Below are positions 6,883 through 64,000 of a stretch of DNA of 64,000 nt, piece by piece. Both the position numbers and the translations under genes were made by a program. The notes beneath the pieces are model-generated. The model was not told where the DNA came from. It was given only the letters and a program-made list of their open reading frames with translations, and searched no databases. The stretch comes from a bacterium (GTDB taxonomy: Bacteria > DRYD01): contig JAUQQQ010000001.1 in NCBI GenBank assembly GCA_030549815.1, positions 90,873 through 154,872 on the forward strand, read 5' to 3'. How positions within the stretch are numbered: the first letter of the stretch is position 1; every line of letters starts with the position of its first letter.

Positions 6883-9699
6883 TTATCTTCTTAAAGTATC
6901 ATATATCCTATATTCATAGCCTCTATACCTTATAGATGCGCTTTGGAGGAAACTAATGTTGAAAAGTGAAGGATCATAGAAGAAATCTACTTTACTCGTG
7001 CCCTTTATCCCAACATTACCCTTAGTTACAACCATTCCACTAAACCATAATCGATTGTTATTACCCGTTATTGCTTTCAGATTCCCACCAACCATTATTA
7101 AACCATTTAATTTAACATCGGTCCCTAATATTTGCTCGTTAGCCTTCCCCCTCTTTTTCTTTTCTTTTTCCATTTGCTGCTGCCCCTGTTGCTGATCCTG
7201 CTGCGTAGTAGATTGATCACTATTTTCTGTAACAAGCCCAGATATAAAATTTAAAGCAGAAGCAAAATCAGAATCAGTAATACTACTGTTAATACTACTA
7301 TATGAACTTGAAACATCAACAGCTATAGTACCTTCATCCGTCGAAGCATTTCCAGTATTAGACAAATTTCCTACATGCAAGTTGACAGAAGGAATATTAA
7401 TATTAACATACAGAATTTTTACTTTACTTTCGCTATCATCATTAACTTCTTCCACTTCCAATTTTATTGTATTAACACTATCATAAAATAAAAGAATAAA
7501 GTCATTAAGCCCATCTCCATCCTGAATATCTATTTTTGAAAAAGTCATACTACCACTATTATTTTTAAGATATTCATAAACAGTGTTAAAAACAGTGTTA
7601 AATTCATTTGTGTTTGACCCACTACCTCCACTTGTTCCACCACCACTTGTTCCTCCACTTGTTCCACCACCACTTGTTCCTCCACTTGTTCCACCGCCAC
7701 CTGCAAAACCTTCACTAAGTGGGTTAATGTATAGGTTATTATCGGCTAAGATAGCGACGTTTTGGTAGCCCTGATAAACTTGGCTAAACCTTGCAATTAT
7801 ATCCCCCTGTTTAACCTGCCCACCTACAGCACTATAATCTTTTGTTTTTAAAGTTCCACTTTTACTATCATAATTATATGATTGCCAATAATTAGTAACA
7901 TTATTATCATAATAAACTGGGGCAATATAGTTAGTTACGTTTAAAGAATCGTTAGAAGAGTCCTTAGTAGCTACTAAAGCTCCTCCACCTTCCTCATCAG
8001 TCTTAACTATTCCATCAATAACAATCGCTCCTTTGTCATACCACAAAACCGAACCATTATCTATCTTAACCCCTACATCAATCTTTCCAAACCTATAATC
8101 ATCTACACTACCATCACTTCTATATTGAGCTTTCCAGGAAGTAATATGGATAAACTTTCCCTGATCATTTTTTTGACCATCTATTTGATCACCTATTTTG
8201 GTATCCTTTTTAACAACGAGGTTCCATTTTTCGGCATATATTTCATTTCCCACAATGCTTGTATTGTATATTTGGACTCCACCTGGTGTTATCTTTGCTT
8301 TGCTTGTGTCTATAGTTCCATCACTTTTAACAACTTGCTTTAGATAGTTATCAATTTGAGTATAACTAACATCTGGTGGGAAATATACAACAGTATTTTC
8401 ATTTACAAAAACATAATATCCTGCATTTAACTGTGCATATGATCCAGGAGTAAATTTAGAGTTAATTTCGTTAATCAATGCTTTTCGCGAGCTATCAAAA
8501 CCGGATTCTATTGTTTTATTTACAAACTCTGCACCAATAAAGTCTTTTATTTGGTTGTATTTATTTTGATCATATTTAATAGCATTAGGATCTGTTCCAT
8601 CTATCATCGTATAAATTGTCTTACCATATTTGAAACTATTACCACTATTAGTTTTAGCAATCACTTCTCCTCTAAGCCCGCCATATTCAGCTTGAAAATT
8701 TCCATTACTATCTTGCTTAACAGTGTAAAATTTTGTAGTTTTGTGATCAGCATTAAGTTTTATATCAAACGTATTAGAATAGAATCTATTATTAACTCTA
8801 TTACTATCATAGGTTCCGACTTCTAAATTAGAATCGATAATAGTGGATCCTTCAGAAACCAGGGATCCACCTAGGGAAAACCCTGCATTAGCAAAAGATT
8901 GATTAATATAGGTTATAACATATCTTTGTGAAGCTGGAACTTTTGAGTATCCAAGAGCCATTATCATCAATGTATTCTGCCCAACTTTTCTACTACCATT
9001 AACATTAATTTCTTGATCTGCAAATGAGCGGTTGTATGAAGAGTACAAAGGCAATCTTCCATTCGTAGCAGACAAAGATAGTTGATTATTATCAAAATCT
9101 ACAAATATTGTGTTAGCTTCATCACCATAATAGGCGTTATTAGAATTGGTTGAATTACCAAAAAATATAACGCTTCCACGCTCTGTTATAGGTAAATTAG
9201 GTTTCCAAAAAACAACAACAGCTCCATTTTTACCTGCAAGATTATTAATTGAAATATCATTAGGTATTCCGGTTCCTCCTTGAACATTGCCATTAGATTG
9301 CCTAATTATCCATCCACTTTGAGTTGTATCTGCTAAATTTATTATAGCAATATTATAAGCCAGGGTGACATTACCAAAGTTGCTAAAGATTTTTCCTATT
9401 TTAGTTGAAGGATTATTTAAAGAGGGAAAAGTTATGGTATTTATGCTACTTGTGCCGCTTCCCGAACCTGTTATAGATTGGCTTGGTGTATTAAGCATAA
9501 AAGATTCAGGAGAGTGACTTATAAGAAAAGTAAGGATTTGAATAGCATCTTCCGCATTATTCATTGCTTCCTGACGAGCAAAGTAATCTTTATTAGTTTT
9601 AAAATTATTTTGTGTTAATCCAAATAGAGCGACTGACATCATTATGAGAACCACTATAAAGAATAATGTGCTTAGTAATAGGACACCTTTTTTATTCAT
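6883..9699 (-). CDS. Large (938 aa) membrane-anchored surface protein with PilX_N-like N-terminus and Gly/Thr/Ser repeat linker
   Basis: N-terminal TM helix followed by TQNNF...ARQEAMNNAEDAI, which resembles the PilX_N pattern of A..AE.G. after a TM segment. An internal GGTSGG tandem repeat is present and the body is Asn/Ser/Thr-rich. Confidence 0.45.
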   Translation of the reverse strand: MNKKGVLLLSTLFFIVVLIMMSVALFGLTQNNFKTNKDYFARQEAMNNAEDAIQILTFLISHSPESFMLNTPSQSITGSGSGTSSINTITFPSLNNPSTKIGKIFSNFGNVTLAYNIAIINLADTTQSGWIIRQSNGNVQGGTGIPNDISINNLAGKNGAVVVFWKPNLPITERGSVIFFGNSTNSNNAYYGDEANTIFVDFDNNQLSLSATNGRLPLYSSYNRSFADQEINVNGSRKVGQNTLMIMALGYSKVPASQRYVITYINQSFANAGFSLGGSLVSEGSTIIDSNLEVGTYDSNRVNNRFYSNTFDIKLNADHKTTKFYTVKQDSNGNFQAEYGGLRGEVIAKTNSGNSFKYGKTIYTMIDGTDPNAIKYDQNKYNQIKDFIGAEFVNKTIESGFDSSRKALINEINSKFTPGSYAQLNAGYYVFVNENTVVYFPPDVSYTQIDNYLKQVVKSDGTIDTSKAKITPGGVQIYNTSIVGNEIYAEKWNLVVKKDTKIGDQIDGQKNDQGKFIHITSWKAQYRSDGSVDDYRFGKIDVGVKIDNGSVLWYDKGAIVIDGIVKTDEEGGGALVATKDSSNDSLNVTNYIAPVYYDNNVTNYWQSYNYDSKSGTLKTKDYSAVGGQVKQGDIIARFSQVYQGYQNVAILADNNLYINPLSEGFAGGGGTSGGTSGGGTSGGTSGGGTSGGSGSNTNEFNTVFNTVYEYLKNNSGSMTFSKIDIQDGDGLNDFILLFYDSVNTIKLEVEEVNDDSESKVKILYVNINIPSVNLHVGNLSNTGNASTDEGTIAVDVSSSYSSINSSITDSDFASALNFISGLVTENSDQSTTQQDQQQGQQQMEKEKKKRGKANEQILGTDVKLNGLIMVGGNLKAITGNNNRLWFSGMVVTKGNVGIKGTSKVDFFYDPSLFNISFLQSASIRYRGYEYRIYDTLRR

Positions 9700-53943: not shown

Positions 53944-54996
53944 ATGGAAATTAATTGCAAAGTATTGAACAAAACAGAATACATAATATTAAGGTCTCTA
54001 TCTGCTTCCTCTAAAACATACTGGGATCTGTTATTAGAATCTTTTGATACAGCAGCAAATACAATAGCTGCTATAAAAAAGTTGCTACAGGAAAATGTTA
54101 TCAATTACGACGGTAAATATTTTAATCTAACAGAAGAAGGTAAAAAAATACTAAAATCAGTCCTGAAAAAAGAATATGTAGATGTTAGATGTAAAGAATG
54201 TGGAGGAAAAGGTATAAATTCAAATGCTTTTCAAGATTTAGCTAATCAATTTAAAGAAGTAATAAAAGACAGACCCGCAGCTATACCTGAATTCGATCAA
54301 GGAGTAGTTAATCTTGAAACAGTAATTAACAGGATCGCTTTTATGTATAATAAAGGTGATTTGGAAAATAAAGACATAGTCTTAATAGGAGATGACGATT
54401 TAACTTCTATAGCTTTATCTTTAAGCAACTTACCTAATAAAGTTGTAGTTCTTGAAGCAGACGAAAGATTAGTAAATTACATAAATCAAAAAGCAAGAGA
54501 TCTAAATCTGAAAAACCTCGAAGCAATAGTTTATAATGTTGAATGGAAAGTTGAAAAAGATCTTCTTAATTCATTTGATGTATTTTTAACAGACCCTGTC
54601 GAAACTGTCCAAGGAATAACACTATTCATTTCAAGGGGATGTTCAATGCTAAAAGAAAAAGGTGTCCTTTATTTCGGTCTAACACACATAGAAGCATCTT
54701 ATAGCAAATGGTATAAAATACATAGAAACTTGTATGAAATGGGATTTGTTATTACGGATATACTCGATAAATTCCAATTATATGAACTAAACCCTGATGA
54801 TATAGTTTCAAAAGGATATAGAGTATTTACAGAAGCAGGAGTTAAGTTATCTAAACCAGAAAAACCCTGGTATAACTCGGCATTCCATAGGTTAGAATTA
54901 GTTGAAAAAGCAAAACCCTTGTTTGACCCAAATCAAACATATAAATTGGAAAGGGATTTATATTATGATGAAGAAGCATATGTTACTCTCTACTAA
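53944..54996 (+). CDS. BpsA-like aminopropyltransferase (DUF43 family; branched-chain polyamine synthase-like)
   Basis: The IVLIGDDDLTSIALSL (GDDDLxS) motif is diagnostic of the DUF43/BpsA family. A methyltransferase-like Rossmann region follows an N-terminal winged-helix-like region. Confidence 0.6.
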   Translation: MEINCKVLNKTEYIILRSLSASSKTYWDLLLESFDTAANTIAAIKKLLQENVINYDGKYFNLTEEGKKILKSVLKKEYVDVRCKECGGKGINSNAFQDLANQFKEVIKDRPAAIPEFDQGVVNLETVINRIAFMYNKGDLENKDIVLIGDDDLTSIALSLSNLPNKVVVLEADERLVNYINQKARDLNLKNLEAIVYNVEWKVEKDLLNSFDVFLTDPVETVQGITLFISRGCSMLKEKGVLYFGLTHIEASYSKWYKIHRNLYEMGFVITDILDKFQLYELNPDDIVSKGYRVFTEAGVKLSKPEKPWYNSAFHRLELVEKAKPLFDPNQTYKLERDLYYDEEAYVTLY

Positions 54997-55702
54997 CGTT
55001 ATTTTATTAAAAAGAGAAAGTTTTAGCGGTATACTGAATATGAAAATAGATGAATATCTTTTTAACAATTTTGAAAGATTAGTTTCCGAAAATAGTGTAA
55101 TAGTTAGATTTTATCAGTTCTCTAATCATACTGTGACACTCGGATATTCTCAGAAAAGCGTAAGCGAAGAAATATTGAAAATTTTTGATAAATGGTTTTT
55201 CATTAGAAGGATAACAGGAGGAAAAGCAGTTTTCCATTATCCTAAAAGAGACCTAACCCTTTGCCTAATTTCATCATTAAAAAATTTCATTAATTTACCA
55301 AAAGAAAACAAATTATCGTTTATCCATTCGTTTATTAACAATCTGTTGTGGAGTTCTATAGAATTTGAAAATATAAAGGATAAAAATATAAAAACAGAAA
55401 AATCTGAAAAAATAAATTATGTTGCTATAAAGAAATTCGATTGTTTTGAAAACCCTCAAAACTTTGAAAAAACCTATAATGGTAAAAAAGTAATAGGTAC
55501 AGCAATAAAAATATCGAATAACAAGTTTATTGTTCAAGCTAATATAAAACTACAAAATATTTTCGAAGAAATAGATAATAAACTAATAGATAAAATAGAA
55601 AGTAATTTTGTAAAAAAATTATGTAAGAATTACCGTAATGAAAACATTATAGATTTTATCAAAAATTCAAAAGGTTCAACTCATTTTTCTGTTTCCTACT
55701 AA
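54965..55702 (+). CDS. Lipoate-protein ligase/octanoyltransferase family protein (BPL/LPL catalytic domain)
   Basis: IRRITGGKAVFH matches the RRxTGGGAV(Y/F)HD motif. The N-terminus is LplA-like. ATG 54965 overlaps the bpsA end. Confidence 0.6.
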   Translation: MMKKHMLLSTNVILLKRESFSGILNMKIDEYLFNNFERLVSENSVIVRFYQFSNHTVTLGYSQKSVSEEILKIFDKWFFIRRITGGKAVFHYPKRDLTLCLISSLKNFINLPKENKLSFIHSFINNLLWSSIEFENIKDKNIKTEKSEKINYVAIKKFDCFENPQNFEKTYNGKKVIGTAIKISNNKFIVQANIKLQNIFEEIDNKLIDKIESNFVKKLCKNYRNENIIDFIKNSKGSTHFSVSY

Positions 55703-55729
55703 ACATATTTTTTCTTATGAAGGTAGTTT

Positions 55730-56584
55730 ATGGATATTGAGCAAGTAGCGGTCTTTTATAATTCGATAAACGTTGATATCATCACTGTAAAGAATTTTTA
55801 TACCAAGCTGAAAAAAATTTGTAAATGCTTAAAACCTGTGGATATTACAAATAGAAGAGAAGTTTCTTTATTTTTAGAAGCAATGAAAAAAATGAAAAAC
55901 ATAAAAAATATTTTCTTGATTAATTTAGGGGGAGATGGTAGCCTTTTCTCTTCATTATCAATATTAGCAAAAACATTAGAAACTCAAAAAATACACACCA
56001 TTTCTTTCAATTTTGGTAATAAAGGTTTTTATTGTTTTTATCCCAAAAATTTATTGTTCGATTTTTTAGAAGATAAAATCAATATAATGGATATAATAAA
56101 GAATGATTATGAAGAAGAAAATTTTGTTGAGGGGTATTTTTGGTTAGCCAATGAAGAACCTTTTATAGGTGATGTTGTTATTAAGCCATACAACCAATAC
56201 AAAACAATAAGGTTAAGTTATAGAATAGAGGATAAAGAAATAGAGGAAATTTGCGATGGGATAATTGTTTTTACCACTTTTGGAGCAACAGGATATTTTC
56301 TTTCTTTGAATGGAGTATATATAGATAATGGTTTTAAGGATTTAATAGGTTTATCATTTATAGCTCCACACTCTTTAAAACATCGCCCGCACTTGTTAAA
56401 AAATAAAAAAATATCTATTACTAATAAAGACAAGAAAACTGCAATTGTAATAAACGATGGACAAGATAAGTTCCTATTAGAATCAAACAAAACAATAGAA
56501 ATATCAAGATCCGATAAAGAATTCATCCTGATAGGACAAAAAAATACATTCAAAAGATGGGTAGAGATATTTTATGACAAATAA
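55730..56584 (+). CDS. nadK: NAD(+) kinase
   Basis: LGGDGSLF is the GGDGT/S motif, ISFNFGNKGFY is NxGxLGFL-like, and DGIIVFTTFGATGYFLSLNG is the C-terminal DG..TPtGSTAYs.SAGG motif. Confidence 0.75.
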   Translation: MDIEQVAVFYNSINVDIITVKNFYTKLKKICKCLKPVDITNRREVSLFLEAMKKMKNIKNIFLINLGGDGSLFSSLSILAKTLETQKIHTISFNFGNKGFYCFYPKNLLFDFLEDKINIMDIIKNDYEEENFVEGYFWLANEEPFIGDVVIKPYNQYKTIRLSYRIEDKEIEEICDGIIVFTTFGATGYFLSLNGVYIDNGFKDLIGLSFIAPHSLKHRPHLLKNKKISITNKDKKTAIVINDGQDKFLLESNKTIEISRSDKEFILIGQKNTFKRWVEIFYDK

Positions 56585-57947
56585 AAACATAAAAAAAATC
56601 GATGATTTAGCTGAATTAAAAGCAATCCCACTAAATACAATAGTTCCTTTCGATCAAGTTATACAAAACAACACCCTTATCCTTAATTATTCCTCACCTA
56701 ACATAAGACTACTATTCAATTTTATCAACCACTTTGCTTTACAAAAAAATAAACAAAACGAAAGTATAAAAATCATTTGCATAATTCCCCATAAAATAAA
56801 ACATTATGAAGAGTATTTAATATACAACTTGCCATTTCCCATATATCAAATAACAGACTTCTTTAATTTTAACATAAATGAAAACACCGTTTTAACAAAT
56901 GAAAATAATTCGTTAGAAATAATCAATCCTTTTGCTAAATATGATGTAGCTTACATATACAAAAATGAAAATACAATAGACTACTGCATACAGAATGAAA
57001 TCACTCCCCAAGATATAAAAGATATAAGTATTAACTTAACAAACACATTAAATTTTATACCTCATAATTTACACTATTCAACAAAAGATTTTATAGTAAG
57101 TGATTTTAGGAAAGGTAGTTTATTAACCGTTTTAAAGAACGATTCCTTACAATCAAGAATATATCTATATTTACTTGAGATAAACAAAGCTCACAAAATT
57201 CTGGAAATTAAGGATAAAAACTTAATAAAATCGATCGATACAATAATTGTCGATCACAATAAAATAATTCTATCTTTACTATTACCCGACAATAATATCG
57301 TATTTAAAGAATACAATTTCAATAATGATTCTATAGATACAGTCCTTGAATTAGATTTAGAATCGAGTTTCGAAAAATTAAAAAACCTTGACCTAAAAAA
57401 AATAAGAATAGATAGTTCAAATATCGTCGTTTGGGATCACAATACAATACATATTCTAAAACATTTTAATCTAAAGAATATTGAATACTACAATAGTAGT
57501 GGTCAAAAAACCAAACAAACACCAAAACCAACAGATGGAGTATGGAAACAAACAATATGGGGAAACATAAATAATATTCATATAAAAAACAATCTTCTTT
57601 TTGTTGCGGATACAGAATATTCAATGATAAGAATTTTAAACCTTTTAACTGGTCAAAGTCAATCTATGTCATTTACTGGTTTTGAAAAAGAATATGAAAA
57701 ATTGAAAGGCAAAATTTCTTCCGTCTTTAATCACGAAAATAAAATATTTCTAATAGATCTGGATTTCAAAAAAATAAGGTTGGTAACCATTCCTGAATAT
57801 AATGTAAAGACAATATTTTTTGATGAAGATATCAACCTGTATTCCCAAGTATATTATTTACCTTCTATAAATTCTTGCATTTATAATACATTGAAAAAAA
57901 TAGTATTACTTGATCTGTATAGAATGGAAATAAGGGAGGTGGAGTGA
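56574..57947 (+). CDS. Hypothetical protein (possible C-terminal beta-propeller/NHL-like repeats)
   Basis: 457-aa ORF, translationally coupled to nadK. LFVADTEYSMIRILNLLTG resembles the NHL repeat core. Confidence 0.4.
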   Translation: MTNKNIKKIDDLAELKAIPLNTIVPFDQVIQNNTLILNYSSPNIRLLFNFINHFALQKNKQNESIKIICIIPHKIKHYEEYLIYNLPFPIYQITDFFNFNINENTVLTNENNSLEIINPFAKYDVAYIYKNENTIDYCIQNEITPQDIKDISINLTNTLNFIPHNLHYSTKDFIVSDFRKGSLLTVLKNDSLQSRIYLYLLEINKAHKILEIKDKNLIKSIDTIIVDHNKIILSLLLPDNNIVFKEYNFNNDSIDTVLELDLESSFEKLKNLDLKKIRIDSSNIVVWDHNTIHILKHFNLKNIEYYNSSGQKTKQTPKPTDGVWKQTIWGNINNIHIKNNLLFVADTEYSMIRILNLLTGQSQSMSFTGFEKEYEKLKGKISSVFNHENKIFLIDLDFKKIRLVTIPEYNVKTIFFDEDINLYSQVYYLPSINSCIYNTLKKIVLLDLYRMEIREVE

Positions 57948-60359
57948 ATGTTAATAAAAAACTCTATCGATGAAAAATTATTGGACAGTTTCTTCAAAGC
58001 TTATTGCTTTCTAAGCGTTGGAATGATATACTTAAGGGAAAATCCTTTATTAAAAGAGGAATTAGATTTTGGACATATAAAGAGTAGGTTACTTGGACAC
58101 TGGGGTGCAAGCCCAAACATAAGTTTCATCTATACACATTGTAATAGGATAGTTAAAAATTTTGAATTAGAAAACAAGGAATTAGATTGTATGATAGTAG
58201 TAGGTCCTGGGCATGGAGCACCAGGTTATATCTCTCCACTCTATTTAGAAGGAACTTTATCAAAATATTATCCTCAATTTAGTCAAGACGAGGAAGGAAT
58301 GAAAAACTTGTTTAGATCCTTTTCATATCCGGGTGGCCTTGGAAGCCATTGCACACCTGAATTACCCGGCACAATACAAGAAGGAGGAGAATTAGGATAT
58401 ACCCTTTCCCATTCCTTTGGAGCAGTTTTAGATAATCCAAACCTTCTGGTTATATCGATTGTCGGTGATGGAGAAGCAGAAACCGGACCATTAGCAACCT
58501 CATGGCATTTAAATAAGTTTATAAACCCAATAACAGACGGAGCTGTTCTTCCAATACTCTCCTTAAACGGATACAAAATTAATAACCCAACCATATTAGC
58601 CCGTATTGATAATAATGATCTAATCAATCTTTTCAAAGGATATGGTTATGACCCAATAATTGTAGAATACAACGATGAAATACATACTCAAATGATAAAA
58701 GCAATGGATTATTGCATTGAAAAAATAAAAACTATTCAAGAGGATGCAAGAAATAAAAATAAAGCATTTTTTGCAAGGTTTCCGATGATAATTTTAAAAA
58801 CCCCAAAAGGTTGGACTGCTCCTAAAAAAGTAAAAGAGCATTTCATCGAAGGCTATTGGAGATCACATCAAGTACCCCTACAAAATTGCAAAAAAGATAA
58901 AGAAGAATTAAGACTTTTAGAACAGTGGCTTAAAAGTTATGAACCACAAAATTTATTCGAAAACAACGGAAAACCCAAAGATTATTTACTATCATTAATA
59001 CCAAACAAAAAAATCGGTGAAAACATATACTCAAATGGAGGAAGAATAAGAAAACCTTTGAAATTGCCAGAAATTAAAAATTACGCAATAGATATCGATA
59101 AACCAGCAGTGAAAAAACATTCAAATACAATGGCATTAGGGACATTTTTAAAAGATGTCATAAAAGAAAATCCAAGTAATTTTTTAGTTTTTGGACCTGA
59201 TGAAACCGCATCAAACAGACTGTCAAAAGTGTTCGAATTCGGAAAAAAATGGGTACTCGAAAAATTACCACAAGACAATGATGAAGGATTCTTAAATGAA
59301 TTTGGTAGAACAATAGAATTATTATCTGAACACTCTGTAGAAGGTATGTTAGAAGGATACATTCTAACAGGAAGGCACGGATTCTTAAGCACCTACGAAG
59401 GTTTTGCACCAATCATTTCATCAATGGTTAATCAATTTGGCAAATGGATAGATATTTCCTCAGATGTCCCTTTCAGACAACCAATAAGCTCTTTAAATAT
59501 CCTCTTGACTTCTGTTGTTTGGAGACAAGATCATAATGGATTTACTCATCAAGATCCAGGATTCATCAACGCTATCGTTGATAAATGGCCAAAAATAGTA
59601 AGATTATACTTCCCCTGTGATTCAAATACCCTCATTTCATGCGTCTATCATTGCTTACAAACCACAAATAGAATAAATATAATCATTTGCGATAAACAAG
59701 TTCATACCCAATATTTACCAATCGAAGTAGCAGATAAGCACTTTATAAAAGGTATAGGGACCTTTGATTTTATTAGCGACCCCGAAGAGCCAGATGTAGT
59801 AATAGCATCTTGTGGAGATATACCAACTAAAGAAGCATTGGCAGCCTCATTCATAATTAAAGAATTATTCCAAGAAGTAAAAATTAGATTTGTCAATGTG
59901 GTAAATTTATTCAGATTAACACCAGAAAGCGAGCATCCAGATGGCTTAAAAGATGACGAATTCGACCTCTACTTTACAGTAGATAAACCCATAATCTTTA
60001 ACTTTCATGGTTACCCTTGGCTAATACATAGATTAACATATAGGAGAAACAATCACAGAAATCTACATGTAAGGGGATACAGAGAAAACAGAAAAATTGG
60101 GATAGATGCTTATCATCTTGTTCCTTTCCTAAGGGGACGAGGAGGCATTACCACTCCTATGCAATTAGCAATTATAAACCAAATAGATAGATTTAGTATA
60201 GCAATCGACACAATCAAAAGAACTGAGAAAATTAAAAACAAAGGAGCAAAATACATTGATAAACTCAAAAATTTACAAATCGATGCTTTAAAATTTGCTT
60301 ATGAAAACGGGATAGATAAAGAAGAATATGAAGATATATTCAGCCCTAAACTATGGTAG
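57948..60359 (+). CDS. xfp: Phosphoketolase (xylulose-5-P/fructose-6-P phosphoketolase)
   Basis: XFP signatures LLGHWGASPNISFIYTHCNR and GPGHGAPGY (TPP-binding). About 800 aa. Confidence 0.9.
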   Translation: MLIKNSIDEKLLDSFFKAYCFLSVGMIYLRENPLLKEELDFGHIKSRLLGHWGASPNISFIYTHCNRIVKNFELENKELDCMIVVGPGHGAPGYISPLYLEGTLSKYYPQFSQDEEGMKNLFRSFSYPGGLGSHCTPELPGTIQEGGELGYTLSHSFGAVLDNPNLLVISIVGDGEAETGPLATSWHLNKFINPITDGAVLPILSLNGYKINNPTILARIDNNDLINLFKGYGYDPIIVEYNDEIHTQMIKAMDYCIEKIKTIQEDARNKNKAFFARFPMIILKTPKGWTAPKKVKEHFIEGYWRSHQVPLQNCKKDKEELRLLEQWLKSYEPQNLFENNGKPKDYLLSLIPNKKIGENIYSNGGRIRKPLKLPEIKNYAIDIDKPAVKKHSNTMALGTFLKDVIKENPSNFLVFGPDETASNRLSKVFEFGKKWVLEKLPQDNDEGFLNEFGRTIELLSEHSVEGMLEGYILTGRHGFLSTYEGFAPIISSMVNQFGKWIDISSDVPFRQPISSLNILLTSVVWRQDHNGFTHQDPGFINAIVDKWPKIVRLYFPCDSNTLISCVYHCLQTTNRINIIICDKQVHTQYLPIEVADKHFIKGIGTFDFISDPEEPDVVIASCGDIPTKEALAASFIIKELFQEVKIRFVNVVNLFRLTPESEHPDGLKDDEFDLYFTVDKPIIFNFHGYPWLIHRLTYRRNNHRNLHVRGYRENRKIGIDAYHLVPFLRGRGGITTPMQLAIINQIDRFSIAIDTIKRTEKIKNKGAKYIDKLKNLQIDALKFAYENGIDKEEYEDIFSPKLW

Positions 60360-61392
60360 TTCCTCATTAAAAATAGCTATCTTCGCCGTAAACAAATCCC
60401 TTTATGAATTAATAAACAAAAAAAACATTACCTCATTTGACAATATTGAAAATGCAATAGAAGAAAATATTAACCTCTTCATAGACAATAAAGTAGATGT
60501 TTTTGTTCATAGAGTTGTTCATGGTTTAGACTACAAAAATCCTTTCCTTATAAATGATGAAACCATAAAAACTTTGGAATATCTTGCAAAGATTAATCCC
60601 TTACATAACGAATTAGCTTTAAAAGGTATAAAAAAGTTGAGGTCAACTTTCAAGGAAAAACTACACTATGCATTATTTGATACATATTTTCATAATTCCA
60701 TTCCTTCTTATGCCAAAGTATATGGAATAAGTTTAGATTTCTTTAGAAGTGGAGTAAAGAGGTATGGCTTTCATGGAATTTCCTATTCCTACATAGTTCG
60801 AAAAATGAAAGAGATTTTAAACAAAGAAAAAGTTGATTTAATCGTTTTACATTTGGGTGCAGGATGTAGTATATGTGCAATAAAAGAAAACAAAAGCATA
60901 GAAACATCTATGGGATTCTCACCTTTAGAAGGGCTGATAATGCAAAAAAGAAGTGGGGATATGGATATAGGGGTCGTTTTTCATCTCATCCAAAATGGCT
61001 TTAAACCTTTCGACTTTTATTCAAAATGTGGATTTACAGCAATGGCAAATGTTAAAAATTTTATAGAATTAGAAGAAAAATATAAAGCAGGTAATGATGA
61101 TGCAGTATTAACTATGAACGCTTTCGTCCATAGGTTAGTAAAATACATCGGATCATACTATGTTTTGCTTGAAAATTTAGATGGTATCGTATTTACAGGA
61201 GGAATTGGAGAAAATAGCTGGCTATTAAGAAATTTAGTTTGTGAAAAATTGAAAAAAATAGGAATTGAATTAAATGAAGAAAAAAACAAAAATAATGAAC
61301 TTTTAATCTCAACAAGTAAAAGTAAAATCAATGTTTTTGTCATAAAAACAGAGGAAGAAGAGGAAATGGTAAGGATTACTGCCCAACAGTGA
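60328..61392 (+). CDS. ackA: Acetate (or butyrate) kinase
   Basis: NYGSSSLK (phosphate 1), VHRVVHG, FDTYFHNS, RYGFHGISYSY, LHLGAGCSICAIKENKSIETSMGFSPLEG and IVFTGGIGENS. Overlaps the xfp end by 32 nt. Confidence 0.85.
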   Translation: MKIYSALNYGSSSLKIAIFAVNKSLYELINKKNITSFDNIENAIEENINLFIDNKVDVFVHRVVHGLDYKNPFLINDETIKTLEYLAKINPLHNELALKGIKKLRSTFKEKLHYALFDTYFHNSIPSYAKVYGISLDFFRSGVKRYGFHGISYSYIVRKMKEILNKEKVDLIVLHLGAGCSICAIKENKSIETSMGFSPLEGLIMQKRSGDMDIGVVFHLIQNGFKPFDFYSKCGFTAMANVKNFIELEEKYKAGNDDAVLTMNAFVHRLVKYIGSYYVLLENLDGIVFTGGIGENSWLLRNLVCEKLKKIGIELNEEKNKNNELLISTSKSKINVFVIKTEEEEEMVRITAQQ

Positions 61393-62416
61393 ATAATCCA
61401 TAACTCAGTCTTGTTTTCGAACCAACACCATAAAATCCTAAAGCTTTCTCTAATAGCTGTTTTATACTTCCTTCTTTCTCCTCTCCTTCTTTTATAAAAT
61501 CATCCACTTTCTCAACAGTTTTATGATCTATTTTCTTCCAAATTTCATCATCGCTTAGATTATTATTGGATTTATTCTTAATTTTACTTTTAATATTGTC
61601 CCACCTGTGTCGATCAAAGAAAACAACAAATCTAAATCCAATCCCTTTCTTTACAGTGATAAAAAAGATTGGATTAGGATTGTCGGATTCAACTGGATAT
61701 TCTACTTGTTCAGAGTAATATGATGGATAATGAACATTCATAACATCAATATCAAATAGATTTTGATTTATAGAAGGGAAAGCATCGAGAAACAGCAAAA
61801 GCCCCTTAAAATCTTGAGCACCAAATAGCAATTGGTAAAACTGAATCTCCAAATCACCTTCATCTTTAACCTCGCTTAATTGATCATTAAATTTTTCACT
61901 TACATTAAGACCATATTTTTCAAAGATTTTCCAAAAGGCTACACTTCTGCAAACACCTTTAATAGATGTTGATGGTATGTAAGGGATACCATAAGTTCGA
62001 TGCAAGGTTATAGAGGTTTCAAGGACACTGGAAGAGCCTAAACCACAAATTAAGCGAGTCTTGGTCTTTAATTCTTTGTCAAAAATTTTTAAATACCCCT
62101 GATTTTTTAAACCATTACAAATGTTATCTATATCCTTGTAAAATGGTAATCTATCAAAATCTTCCTTTTTAATACTCAATTTAGATATTTTTTTGAAAAA
62201 GTCTTTTTTTACTCTATTATCGAAAACAATATTTCCATCTTTTTCAGATAAAGGAATAAATTTTTCCAATAACAAAGAAAAATTTAGATTATTTCCTTTT
62301 TGTTCGCTTAAATCTTTCCAGATACCTTCAAAATGTCTATTTACAAAGATTTCTTTATTTTGGTTATGTTTATTTTCCTTACTGTGTGTTTTTCCTTTAT
62401 GATCTTTATGATTCAT
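61376..62416 (-). CDS. cmr6: Type III CRISPR-Cas RAMP subunit Cmr6-like
   Basis: RLICGLGSSSVLETSITLHRTYGIPYIPSTSIKGVCRS fits the Cmr6 GLG...G.PYIPGSSlKG..R core. The C-terminal G-rich loop is LGFYGVGSKTRLSYGLF. It is the last gene of the operon, as in III-B. Confidence 0.75.
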   Translation of the reverse strand: MNHKDHKGKTHSKENKHNQNKEIFVNRHFEGIWKDLSEQKGNNLNFSLLLEKFIPLSEKDGNIVFDNRVKKDFFKKISKLSIKKEDFDRLPFYKDIDNICNGLKNQGYLKIFDKELKTKTRLICGLGSSSVLETSITLHRTYGIPYIPSTSIKGVCRSVAFWKIFEKYGLNVSEKFNDQLSEVKDEGDLEIQFYQLLFGAQDFKGLLLFLDAFPSINQNLFDIDVMNVHYPSYYSEQVEYPVESDNPNPIFFITVKKGIGFRFVVFFDRHRWDNIKSKIKNKSNNNLSDDEIWKKIDHKTVEKVDDFIKEGEEKEGSIKQLLEKALGFYGVGSKTRLSYGLFTVGQ

Positions 62417-62417
62417 A

Positions 62418-62807
62418 TTATTCTTCCTCCCTTAATTCTACTTCAGCGATTCGTTTTAACCAGGTAGCAATAAGCAAGACCTGACTACTAACAAACCTCA
62501 AAGTATTTGCATCAATTCTAACCAAAAAATCTAATAAATCTTCATTTTCCTTGAAATTTAATAATTTTTGCTTCTTCAATAATTCTGATACAATCTTATA
62601 TACCTTTCTTTTTTCTTGTTTAGATTTGTAAAAAGCCATTGCAGAAATTAGACCGTTAGATACAATAGTAGAAGGTAATCTTCTTATAGCAGTGAGATAT
62701 TTATCTAATTTTTCATTATTACCCTTGGCATCTTTTTTGATTTCTTTTATTTCACTTAAGCACATTTCAGCAATTTCTTGATTTCTTAATCTCAATTTTG
62801 ATGTCAT
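62418..62807 (-). CDS. cmr5: Type III CRISPR-Cas small subunit Cmr5-like (Cas11 family)
   Basis: 129-aa all-helical protein. RRLPSTIVSNGLISAMAFYKSK fits the Cmr5 LP..I..NGL...AF motif. Positioned between the RAMP genes. Confidence 0.65.
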   Translation of the reverse strand: MTSKLRLRNQEIAEMCLSEIKEIKKDAKGNNEKLDKYLTAIRRLPSTIVSNGLISAMAFYKSKQEKRKVYKIVSELLKKQKLLNFKENEDLLDFLVRIDANTLRFVSSQVLLIATWLKRIAEVELREEE

Positions 62808-62813
62808 CTTTCA

Positions 62814-63641
62814 TCACTCCCCATATTTAACAATATTTTTTAATCCTTTAACTTTTTGTTGAAAATCATCCCATAAATGGTTTTCTTTAAGAACATCTTT
62901 AAATCCCCAAATTATCCAGTATTCATTTTTATTAACCAAGATTTTTTTGAGAAAAATGTAATTTACCGTTTTTCTATTCCATTTAGATTCTTTAGACTTT
63001 TTTAAACTTGATAAAAAATTTTGATGTTTATTATTTCCTAACAAATATCCACACAGATTCTTAAAAATTATTGGTGCATCTATATTTACCTTTTTATTTT
63101 CCACTACTTTTTTTATTTTATCAAGCTGATCTTTATACCACTTGATTAACTGATCCTCATTTTGAATTTCACTACCAAAGGTGAATTTAAGGTCAAAATC
63201 TTCGATAATTTGATTTGGTGCTTCTATTGGAATTAAGGAACCACAACCTATTCTTGTTTTTGCCCCAAAATTACCAATAAATAATGAACACCAAAAAGCA
63301 CATAAAAAAATCTTTATATAATCTTTTTGAAGCAAAGGGTTAAAATAAAAACAAATATCAAAGATAGTAGATAAATTTATTTTTGTTTGATTACCTATTT
63401 CAATCTTAACACTTCCTTTCCTTGATTCATTCTTGTTTGCTATACCAAATATTTTATTTTCTATATCTTTATTAGCGACTAACAATCTAAGCCAATGTCG
63501 TATAACACCGTTAAACGATTGTGTCCTTAATTCAAATTGTTTATTTGCATTATACATACATAATTTTACAACTTCTTGAATTCTAAATTTAACCGAAAAC
63601 CAAAAATTACTTGGACCAAAACAAAATTTTTCCATATTCAT
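62814..63641 (-). CDS. cmr4: Type III CRISPR-Cas RAMP (Cas7-group), Cmr4-like by sequence and position
   Basis: SFNGVIRHWLRLLVANKDIENKIFG parallels the Cmr4 S.KGVLRSYL...NKIFG segment. The G-rich loop is GNFGAKTRIGCGSL. ATGA overlap with the upstream gene. Confidence 0.55.
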   Translation of the reverse strand: MNMEKFCFGPSNFWFSVKFRIQEVVKLCMYNANKQFELRTQSFNGVIRHWLRLLVANKDIENKIFGIANKNESRKGSVKIEIGNQTKINLSTIFDICFYFNPLLQKDYIKIFLCAFWCSLFIGNFGAKTRIGCGSLIPIEAPNQIIEDFDLKFTFGSEIQNEDQLIKWYKDQLDKIKKVVENKKVNIDAPIIFKNLCGYLLGNNKHQNFLSSLKKSKESKWNRKTVNYIFLKKILVNKNEYWIIWGFKDVLKENHLWDDFQQKVKGLKNIVKYGE

Positions 63642-64000
63642 AAAACTTTGCGTATTATTTTAAATTTCTCCAAACTCTTAATAAAATTTTCAAGAGCCGT
63701 AAAATCAGGATGTTCCACATTATAATCTATAATCTTGTTTTCCTCCAAAAAATTGAACTGATGTGAACTATTAGGAATAAAAGTTAAAAATAAACCGTAA
63801 TTTTTATTATTAAATTGAACTATCTTAAAAATCAAAGGTGAAGGTCGTCTAACAGATGAAAATTCTTTGGTTTTTTTGATACTACTAAAATAAAAATTCA
63901 AAGGCAATCCGAAAATCATTCTCTCTACTTTAAAATTTTGTTTTCTTCCCAATAGTAAACCTTTAACATTATCGTAATCAGGTTTATAATAGCTTCTAAA
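63638..64000 (-). CDS. 3' end of a longer type III effector gene (Cmr3 expected by synteny), 5' part off window
   Basis: The minus-strand frame is open from the window edge to TGA at 63638-63640. The C-terminal sequence is ...FGLPLNFYF...RRPSPLIFKI.... The track's 104-aa ORF is only its terminal part (TTG pseudo-start). Confidence 0.4.
   Translation of the reverse strand, partial: FRSYYKPDYDNVKGLLLGRKQNFKVERMIFGLPLNFYFSSIKKTKEFSSVRRPSPLIFKIVQFNNKNYGLFLTFIPNSSHQFNFLEENKIIDYNVEHPDFTALENFIKSLEKFKIIRKVL

Follow-up and report, generated by a model that had tools for sequence, protein, structure and literature searches.

A probable eight-gene type III-B (Cmr) operon with paralogous Cmr1 and Cmr5 genes in a Calescibacterium-related bacterium

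Introduction

Which subunits of a type III effector are encoded at the end of the 64,000-nucleotide stretch of contig JAUQQQ010000001.1 analysed here (hereafter the window), and what is the 275-residue protein in their midst? On the minus strand, positions 61376-64000 carry three complete open reading frames (ORFs) and a fourth cut short where the window ends, all of them co-directional and tightly packed. A preliminary description, made from the sequence alone, took them for the end of a type III (Cmr-like) CRISPR-Cas operon beside xfp and ackA, encoding Cmr6, Cmr5, an unusual Cmr4 and, at the edge, Cmr3, in the canonical order cmr1-cas10-cmr3-cmr4-cmr5-cmr6. Type III-B is usually described as having six subunits.

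The type III operon itself was confirmed, as Cas hidden Markov models (HMMs) matched all of these ORFs and none fell into a non-Cas family. The window end very probably holds the distal half of an operon for a type III-B (Cmr) effector, with eight genes, from a Calescibacterium-related diderm bacterium. In this operon the 275-residue protein (X, or Cmr1b) is a shortened paralogue of Cmr1. The window part of the operon comprises:

63638-64000, minus strand: 3' end of cmr1a (last 120 codons; the rest lies beyond the window), assigned by PF21452
62814-63641, minus strand: cmr1b, encoding X (275 amino acids, aa), assigned by BLASTP against Cmr1a and by the fold of an AlphaFold2 (AF2) model in Foldseek
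62418-62807, minus strand: cmr5b (129 aa), assigned by PF09701 and TIGR01881
61376-62416, minus strand: cmr6 (346 aa), the last gene of the operon, assigned by TIGR01898 and the PADLOC Cmr6 model

Gene content and class of the operon

The Cmr6 assignment was upheld by TIGR01898 (E-value 5e-53, 180 bits, cut-off 51.1) and the PADLOC Cmr6 model (E 1e-55). The cut ORF, expected to be Cmr3, instead matched the C-terminal domain family of Cmr1 (PF21452, Cmr1_like_C; E 2.5e-6, 28.0 bits, cut-off 27), and it carries the second RAMP domain motifs ERMIFGLPLNFYFSS and RRPSPLIFKI.

Only three near-identical relatives of X could be found in an index of 5.8 billion proteins, and the contigs that carry the relatives (L001-L004, and later L030) were used to read the upstream half of the operon. 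Contigs L001-L004 are valid extensions of the window, since they are 96-99% identical to its positions 54001-64000, the value for L001 being 98-99%. Moreover, a contig of 199,845 bp carries proteins that are identical to Cmr1a of L003 or share 90%-identity clusters with its Cas10 and Cmr5a; an EF-G identical to that of the window is placed on a contig of equal length, presumably the same one. As had been anticipated, the operon continues beyond the window, with cas10, cmr3, cmr4 and cmr5a upstream. Its order in the near-identical contigs is cas10-cmr3-cmr4-cmr5a-cmr1a-cmr1b-cmr5b-cmr6, followed by the convergent ackA-xfp pair, and not the canonical one. In this order the proteins measure 940, 367, 321, 130, 392, 275, 126 and 362 aa (the window copies of Cmr5b and Cmr6 having 129 and 346 aa), and full-length Cmr1a measures 392-393 aa among these contigs. 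Consecutive genes are separated by -4, 1, -17, 19, -4, 6 and 1 bp, and can therefore be regarded as a single operon. The start codon of cmr1b overlaps the stop codon of cmr1a (ATGA). While cmr5b and cmr6 are each preceded by a GGAG-type site, cmr1b has no Shine-Dalgarno sequence of its own; together with the overlap, this suggests translational coupling of cmr1b to cmr1a.

All genes except that of X pass the curated family cut-offs. Cas10 (L001 1181-4003) scored 316 bits with TIGR02577 (cut-off 79.4) and 89 bits with the Csm1 model, under the cut-off of 170 of the latter. In the same contig, Cmr3 reached 148 bits with TIGR01888 (cut-off 100) and Cmr4 270 bits with TIGR02580 (cut-off 87). The curated Cmr5 model gave 46 bits for Cmr5a, above its cut-off. 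The Cmr1 subunit, which is absent from type III-A, is present here, full-length cmr1a (L001 6466-7644) scoring 47.4 bits with TIGR01894 (cut-off 28.65) and E 4e-18 with the PADLOC Cmr1 model; the protein keeps 94 of the 103 family-conserved positions. In the translation of cas10 the HD motifs FLHDP (residues 23-27) and ADHIAS could be read, and the cyclase motif is intact (GGDD in VVYAGGDDVL). Intact GGDD and HD motifs in Cas10 separate type III-B from III-C. An aspartate of Cmr4 aligns with the VVDQP motif of Pyrococcus furiosus Cmr4, the aspartate of which we take to be the catalytic D26. From the intact HD, GGDD and aspartate motifs, we infer that both Cas10 and Cmr4 would be active.

Several genes of the operon vary among strains. 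Between its HD and ADHIAS motifs, the Cas10 HD domain (L001 1181-1700) contains a tandem repeat of ~29 aa in ~2.7 copies, with the unit GHxKEAxxxxEEVGLxEYIENKPKAPDxV. In L004, 58 aa are missing at this repeat and Cas10 measures 902 aa compared to 940 aa; variants of 924 aa also occur in the cluster. The number of repeats, which lie within a catalytic domain, therefore differs among strains. Cmr1a of L004 (6335-7384) has 349 aa compared to 392 as a result of in-frame deletions, which take away a portion of the internal insertion as well as stretches of the second RAMP domain near YKPDYDNVKGLLLGR and YFSSIKKTKEF. The nonsynonymous divergence (dN) of L004 cmr1a is ~0.057, and cmr1a is thus more variable than its shortened paralogue X. 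Window positions 61376-62807 show mosaic divergence from L001 8475-9945, with a synonymous divergence (dS) of 0.085 and a dN of 0.05 for cmr5b, and Cmr6 occurs in lengths of 346, 351, 362 and 364 aa. The mosaic pattern and the length variation of Cmr6 suggest recombination or fast turnover within the cmr operon.

Identity of the 275-residue protein

In BLASTP, X showed 38% identity to the adjacent Cmr1a over residues 17-201 (E 2e-41), compared to E 1.2 for the Cmr4 of the same operon, and no Cmr4 model matched X at E <= 1 in HMM scans. The window copy matched the PADLOC Cmr1 model at E 1e-6 and TIGR01894 at 15.3 bits, below the cut-off of 28.65, while TIGR01894 gave no match to the L001 copy. 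On these profile scores, X is placed as a divergent outlier of the Cmr1 family, below the curated threshold. Its generic RAMP match (PF03787, E 1.3e-6) and weak Csm3-type matches (PADLOC, E 2.5e-5) show membership of the RAMP/Cas7 superfamily only.

A phmmer search of 1.84 billion representative sequences returned the own cluster of X, the only one above 50% identity, and then 83 remote matches, all of which aligned in two stretches. Those checked (P0004-P0016) align as full-length Cmr1, which has an internal segment that is missing from X, hence the two stretches. Wherever homologues found with the family profile carry a source name, this name is Cmr1.

Conserved positions of the family were compared in an alignment of 99 sequences. 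X retains ELRTQSFNGxxRxWxR, FG, W117, GNFG, R130, G132 and G134. Altogether 43 of the 103 conserved positions are kept, while 28 are deleted and 32 substituted. The glycines of TPLFMGG, a GG pair, and R128, R131 and F133 of the G-rich loop are lost; neither the GxNYxGFSL segment nor the ERxIFGLPLNFxFSS and RRASPLxxK motifs of the second domain are present. X thus keeps the first RAMP core and the helical linker; of the second RAMP domain little is left, and the internal segment of ~50 residues is gone.

The AF2 model of X, built on the family alignment, had a predicted local distance difference test (pLDDT) score of 80 and a predicted template modelling (pTM) score of 0.85. It begins with an N-terminal RAMP domain, continues with a long helix and ends in a small C-terminal domain of alpha/beta type. 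This second domain has ~80 residues and contains neither FGLPL nor RRASPL, though the model matches two-domain Cmr1. In a Foldseek search of the PDB, the top four matches were all Cmr1 (E 2e-9 to 3e-8, TMq 0.61-0.68), among them the Cmr1 proteins of Archaeoglobus fulgidus and P. furiosus, and a Cmr1 chain from a III-B effector of A. fulgidus (4l6u, 4w8x, 9l7c_A). The next RAMP/Cas7 matches followed at E >= 4e-3 with template modelling (TM) scores of ~0.33, and no Cmr4-named chain was present among the 50 PDB matches listed. The comparison of the modelled structure with both Cmr4 and Cmr1, which the preliminary description had called for, was thus decided for Cmr1.

Because of its 38% identity to Cmr1a and the confident fold matches to Cmr1 only, X is assigned as a compact and strongly derived Cmr1 paralogue, and not as a fused or variant backbone subunit. 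Two features that had seemed unusual for Cmr4 find their place here. The G-rich loop GNFGAKTRIGCGS indeed lies mid-protein (residues 123-135) and is followed by 140 residues, but this is the ordinary end of the first RAMP domain in a two-domain Cmr1. The motif GVIRHWLR (residues 45-52), already suspected to be Cmr1-like, is the Cmr1 helix motif and had pointed in the right direction.

Two other relationships of X were considered and rejected. It does not belong to a compact Cmr1 family of 267-292 aa found in WOR-3 loci, to which it matched at E 1e-5 to 4e-3 and which retains both sets of RAMP motifs. Residues 1-15 of X (MEKFCFGPSNFWFS; window 63597-63641) resemble the second-domain motif ERMIFGLPLNFYFS, which is otherwise missing from X (8 of 15 residues identical, E 0.25). 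Reading this N-terminus as the junction of a permuted duplication would call for an implausible multi-step history, and residues 1-11 have a pLDDT below 50; the likeness is probably due to chance but could be a duplication scar.

Second Cmr5 and related loci

The gene between cmr1b and cmr6 was correctly taken for a cmr5 (PF09701, E 1.4e-23; TIGR01881, 79.9 bits, cut-off 27.9), and it is the second of two. The protein shares 27% identity (E 5e-7) with Cmr5a, encoded upstream of cmr1a.

A scan guided by a profile, with one genome taken per species, recovered 25 loci with relatives of this Cmr1 family, which were annotated by phmmer with the eight operon proteins as queries. The closest are L005 (JANXBF010000049.1, Candidatus (Ca.) Calescibacterium sp. 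SKYB25) and L006 (JAOABG010000054.1, Ca. Calescibacterium), both with the order cas10-cmr3-cmr4-cmr5a-cmr1-cmr5b-cmr6-cmr1', in which the central Cmr1 has 416 aa and the terminal Cmr1' 431 aa. These loci hold the same eight gene families as the present operon, among them a pair of Cmr5 and a pair of Cmr1 from the 'large Cmr1' clade, and their G+C content is likewise ~29%. They differ in that their second Cmr1 is full-length with 431 aa and follows cmr6, whereas here it has 275 aa and precedes cmr5b; identities to the present operon proteins are 31-47%. Since the eight families are shared at ~35-47% Cmr identity, the two Cmr5 and two Cmr1 genes have been retained across lineages.

In L005 and L006 the best match to X is the terminal Cmr1' (37%), and that to Cmr1a the central Cmr1 (45%). 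A neighbour-joining (NJ) tree gave 88% bootstrap support for a Calescibacterium-type Cmr1 clade that includes X; as sister of X, its own Cmr1a and the Cmr1' of L005/L006 received 10% each, with the best BLAST matches mildly favouring Cmr1'. The Cmr5b-type genes clustered in an NJ tree without bootstrap, and in L005, L006, L007, L010 and L026 they are located directly after cmr1 and before cmr6.

Among WOR-3 loci, L008, L011, L012, L014, L019, L023 and L026 have either a large and a distinct compact Cmr1 (267-292 aa) or two Cmr5. The compact Cmr1-like family, with both RAMP motif sets, stands beside or near a large Cmr1 in L008, L011, L014 and L026 (e.g. L026 1100-1987), and L019 and L023 have another Cmr1-like gene of 403 aa between cas10 and cmr1. 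Dual Cmr1 genes thus seem to be common in these phyla. The duplication of cap and small-subunit genes is a recurring, retained feature of this III-B lineage and not an assembly artefact. In the literature searched, no relevant report of operons with two Cmr5 or two Cmr1 genes was found.

Maintenance of the compact Cmr1

The reading frame of X is intact in six independent assemblies with up to 4% DNA divergence, in which the protein has 273, 275 or 278 aa through in-frame indels only. Its dN of 0.003-0.0075 is below that of cmr1a, cmr4 and cmr5b in the same strain pairs. The dN/dS ratio of 0.2-0.55 has the direction expected for purifying selection, in an underpowered test. The intact frame, the low dN and the ATGA overlap argue against X being a dead remnant, without proving a function.

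Array, host and neighbouring genes

A CRISPR array and cas6 were to be looked for within ~10 kb of the operon. No array was found in the 64-kb window by TRF, a k-mer spacing scan and Rfam, nor in L001-L006 and L030-L031 by a direct-repeat search upstream of cas10 and a k-mer spacing scan. Among the loci scanned, only distant ones (L008, L013, L016 and L025) had arrays. The supply of CRISPR RNA (crRNA) to the present operon is therefore putative, and possibly comes from an unlinked array elsewhere in the genome; unlinked arrays are common in type III systems.

At a distance of ~1 kb upstream of cas10, the contigs end within a bacterial 23S rRNA, of which the final 164 nt are present (3' end, L001 1-164); this accounts for the break of all the assemblies at this point. 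The spacer of 1 kb between 23S rRNA and cas10 (L001 165-1180) showed no CRISPR-type repeats. It contains a conserved lysine-rich ORF of 41 codons (727-852) and a relatively GC-rich stretch (~880-1020), without a match in Rfam. In the window, no Rfam family or tRNA was detected.

The host, a diderm bacterium, belongs to the Calescibacterium lineage and has a G+C content of ~29%. The window encodes EF-G, BamA (POTRA and Omp85 domains) and a TonB-dependent receptor, and this EF-G shares 83% identity with the one from Ca. Calescibacterium sp., the next named matches being at ~43%. Among the proteins clustered with Cmr5a (L003 6285-6677) at 90% identity, one carries the NCBI label of a metagenome-assembled genome of Candidatus Aenigmatarchaeota (MEM5875652.1). 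An archaeal host was discounted in view of BamA and the TonB receptor, the EF-G identity and the upstream rRNA, which is best classified as bacterial large-subunit rRNA; the label is likely the result of mis-binning or recent transfer.

Downstream of the operon, two genes on the opposite strand form its context:

60328-61392, plus strand: ackA, assigned by PF00871 on the identical gene in L001 and by ORF coordinates
57948-60359, plus strand: xfp phosphoketolase, assigned by PF09364, PF03894 and PF09363 on the near-identical L001 gene

As already described, the operon abuts this pair: ackA is convergent with cmr6, with a 3' overlap of 17 bp, and xfp precedes ackA. Between the window and L001, xfp has three nonsynonymous differences and ackA is identical. 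Directly upstream of xfp, an ORF of 457 aa (56574-57947, plus strand) is conserved in L001, L004 and L030. Pfam gave no match at E <= 1e-5 for this ORF or for one of 938 aa at 6883-9699 (minus strand).

Discussion

In Cmr complexes, Cas10 and Cmr3 hold the 5' tag of the crRNA, while a Cmr4 backbone and a Cmr5 filament follow the guide; binding of the target leads to Cmr4-mediated RNA cleavage and activation of Cas10. The crRNA is bound by Cmr2 to Cmr5, and its 3' end is capped by Cmr1 together with Cmr6, each of which is needed for the capture of target RNA (PMC4215187). A stoichiometry of 1:1:1:4:3:1 has been given for Cmr1 to Cmr6 (bioRxiv 10.1101/2020.06.24.163345). By analogy with this position of Cmr1 and Cmr6 in the studied complexes, the window genes would specify the capping end of the effector, where target RNA is captured.

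The chances are about even that Cmr1b and Cmr5b are real structural subunits, forming with Cmr6 a specialised cap module. The small-subunit filament would then be heteromeric, with Cmr5a near Cas10 and Cmr5b near the cap, and the cap would hold two Cmr1 proteins. A tentative generalisation, less probable than the cap module itself, is that the III-B systems of Calescibacteriota and some WOR-3 bacteria represent a distinct eight-subunit Cmr with a heteromeric filament and a two-Cmr1 cap, the second Cmr1 being pared down in the present case to one functional RAMP domain and a stub, which may perhaps alter target RNA capture or the setting of crRNA length.

Several points weigh against an eight-gene operon with two working Cmr1 proteins. 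Neither an array nor cas6, cas1/2 or a CARF gene was seen in the 64-kb window or the 1 kb interval between cas10 and the 23S rRNA. The genes cas10, cmr3, cmr4 and cmr5a were read in near-identical contigs only, outside the window itself, although the window's own genome almost certainly carries them too. With 60 of the 103 family-conserved positions lost, X may no longer bind RNA as Cmr1 does, and its dN/dS ratio is based on 2-5 substitutions per class. The entry of both paralogues into one complex is likewise something we infer.

A different origin and assembly are conceivable, in which two III-B modules (cas10-cmr3-cmr4-cmr5a and cmr1-...-cmr5b-cmr6) were fused and the paralogues build alternative, interchangeable complexes. 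The low identity of Cmr5a and Cmr5b marks them as old paralogues, the cmr1-cmr5b-cmr6 trio recurs as a block elsewhere, and two III-B modules stand side by side in some WOR-3 contigs (L007, L026). However, cas10, cmr3, cmr4 and cmr6 are each present only once here, within a single tightly packed operon, and the conservation of the same eight families in L005/L006 fits co-assembly or obligate sharing better; interchangeable complexes are accordingly considered a doubtful, though serious, alternative.

It is unlikely, and somewhat less probable still, that X is a decaying tandem or relocated duplicate of cmr1 beside an ordinary six-subunit Cmr, with cmr5a or cmr5b possibly redundant. X has indeed lost ~60% of the conserved positions, the greater part of the second RAMP domain and the internal segment, lacks its own Shine-Dalgarno sequence, is restricted to one lineage, and was subjected to a selection test of low power. 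Decay is, however, hard to reconcile with a frame kept open in all six assemblies, a dN below that of three other operon genes, probable coupling to cmr1a, a confident two-domain model that superposes on Cmr1, and the retention of a second Cmr1 in relatives. That X is a variant or fused Cmr4, the cut ORF Cmr3 and the gene order canonical can be dismissed as extremely improbable, given the similarity of X to Cmr1 in sequence and fold, the bona fide Cmr4 and Cmr3 genes further upstream and the Cmr1_like_C match of the cut ORF.

The eight-gene operon with distinct Cmr1 and Cmr5 paralogues shares all six canonical families, above thresholds, with the type III-B Cmr systems of P. furiosus, Thermus thermophilus, A. 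fulgidus and Sulfolobus islandicus, and would also share RNA-guided RNA recognition, Cmr4 cleavage and Cas10 activation. It differs in having eight genes instead of six, with a short Cmr1 and a diverged Cmr5 between cmr1 and cmr6, and in showing neither an array nor a cas6 or CARF gene alongside. P. furiosus also has two Cmr1 proteins for one Cmr system (Cmr1-1 and Cmr1-2), which are redundant, full-length and unlinked, whereas here the second copy is adjacent, shortened, diverged and accompanied by a second Cmr5. The name 'Cmr1-2' does not appear in PMC4215187. The gene order cmr4-cmr5-cmr1-...-cmr6 is similar to the cmr4-5-1-6 order known in archaea (Pyrobaculum, Sulfolobus; PMC3396285), unlike the Thermotoga-type order cmr1-cas10-cmr3-cmr4-cmr5-cmr6. 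In the present case, however, the host is bacterial, cas10-cmr3 lie co-directionally and directly upstream, and cmr1b-cmr5b interrupt cmr1-cmr6. The idea that specialised paralogues can fill backbone or cap positions links the operon to types III-D and III-Dv, which have several distinct Cas7 paralogues; those systems are marked by Csx10 and a Csm-type Cas11, while every subunit here is of Cmr type.

An eight-gene III-B operon with Cmr1 and Cmr5 paralogues varies a very well known theme, and leaves the understanding of type III function unchanged. For annotation, the canonical gene order misleads the assignment of X, and pipelines may leave the protein unnamed or call it RAMP only, because it lies below the curated Cmr1 threshold. 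The conserved operon with two Cmr5 and two Cmr1 suggests a lineage-specific specialisation of filament and cap positions, comparable to that of the Cas7 backbone in type III-D. If both paralogues share one particle, they would amount to a natural experiment as to what portions of Cmr1 the cap requires. The internal segment of ~50 residues would then appear dispensable, as would the second RAMP domain, and the pair of Cmr5 proteins would bear on the differentiation of Cas11.

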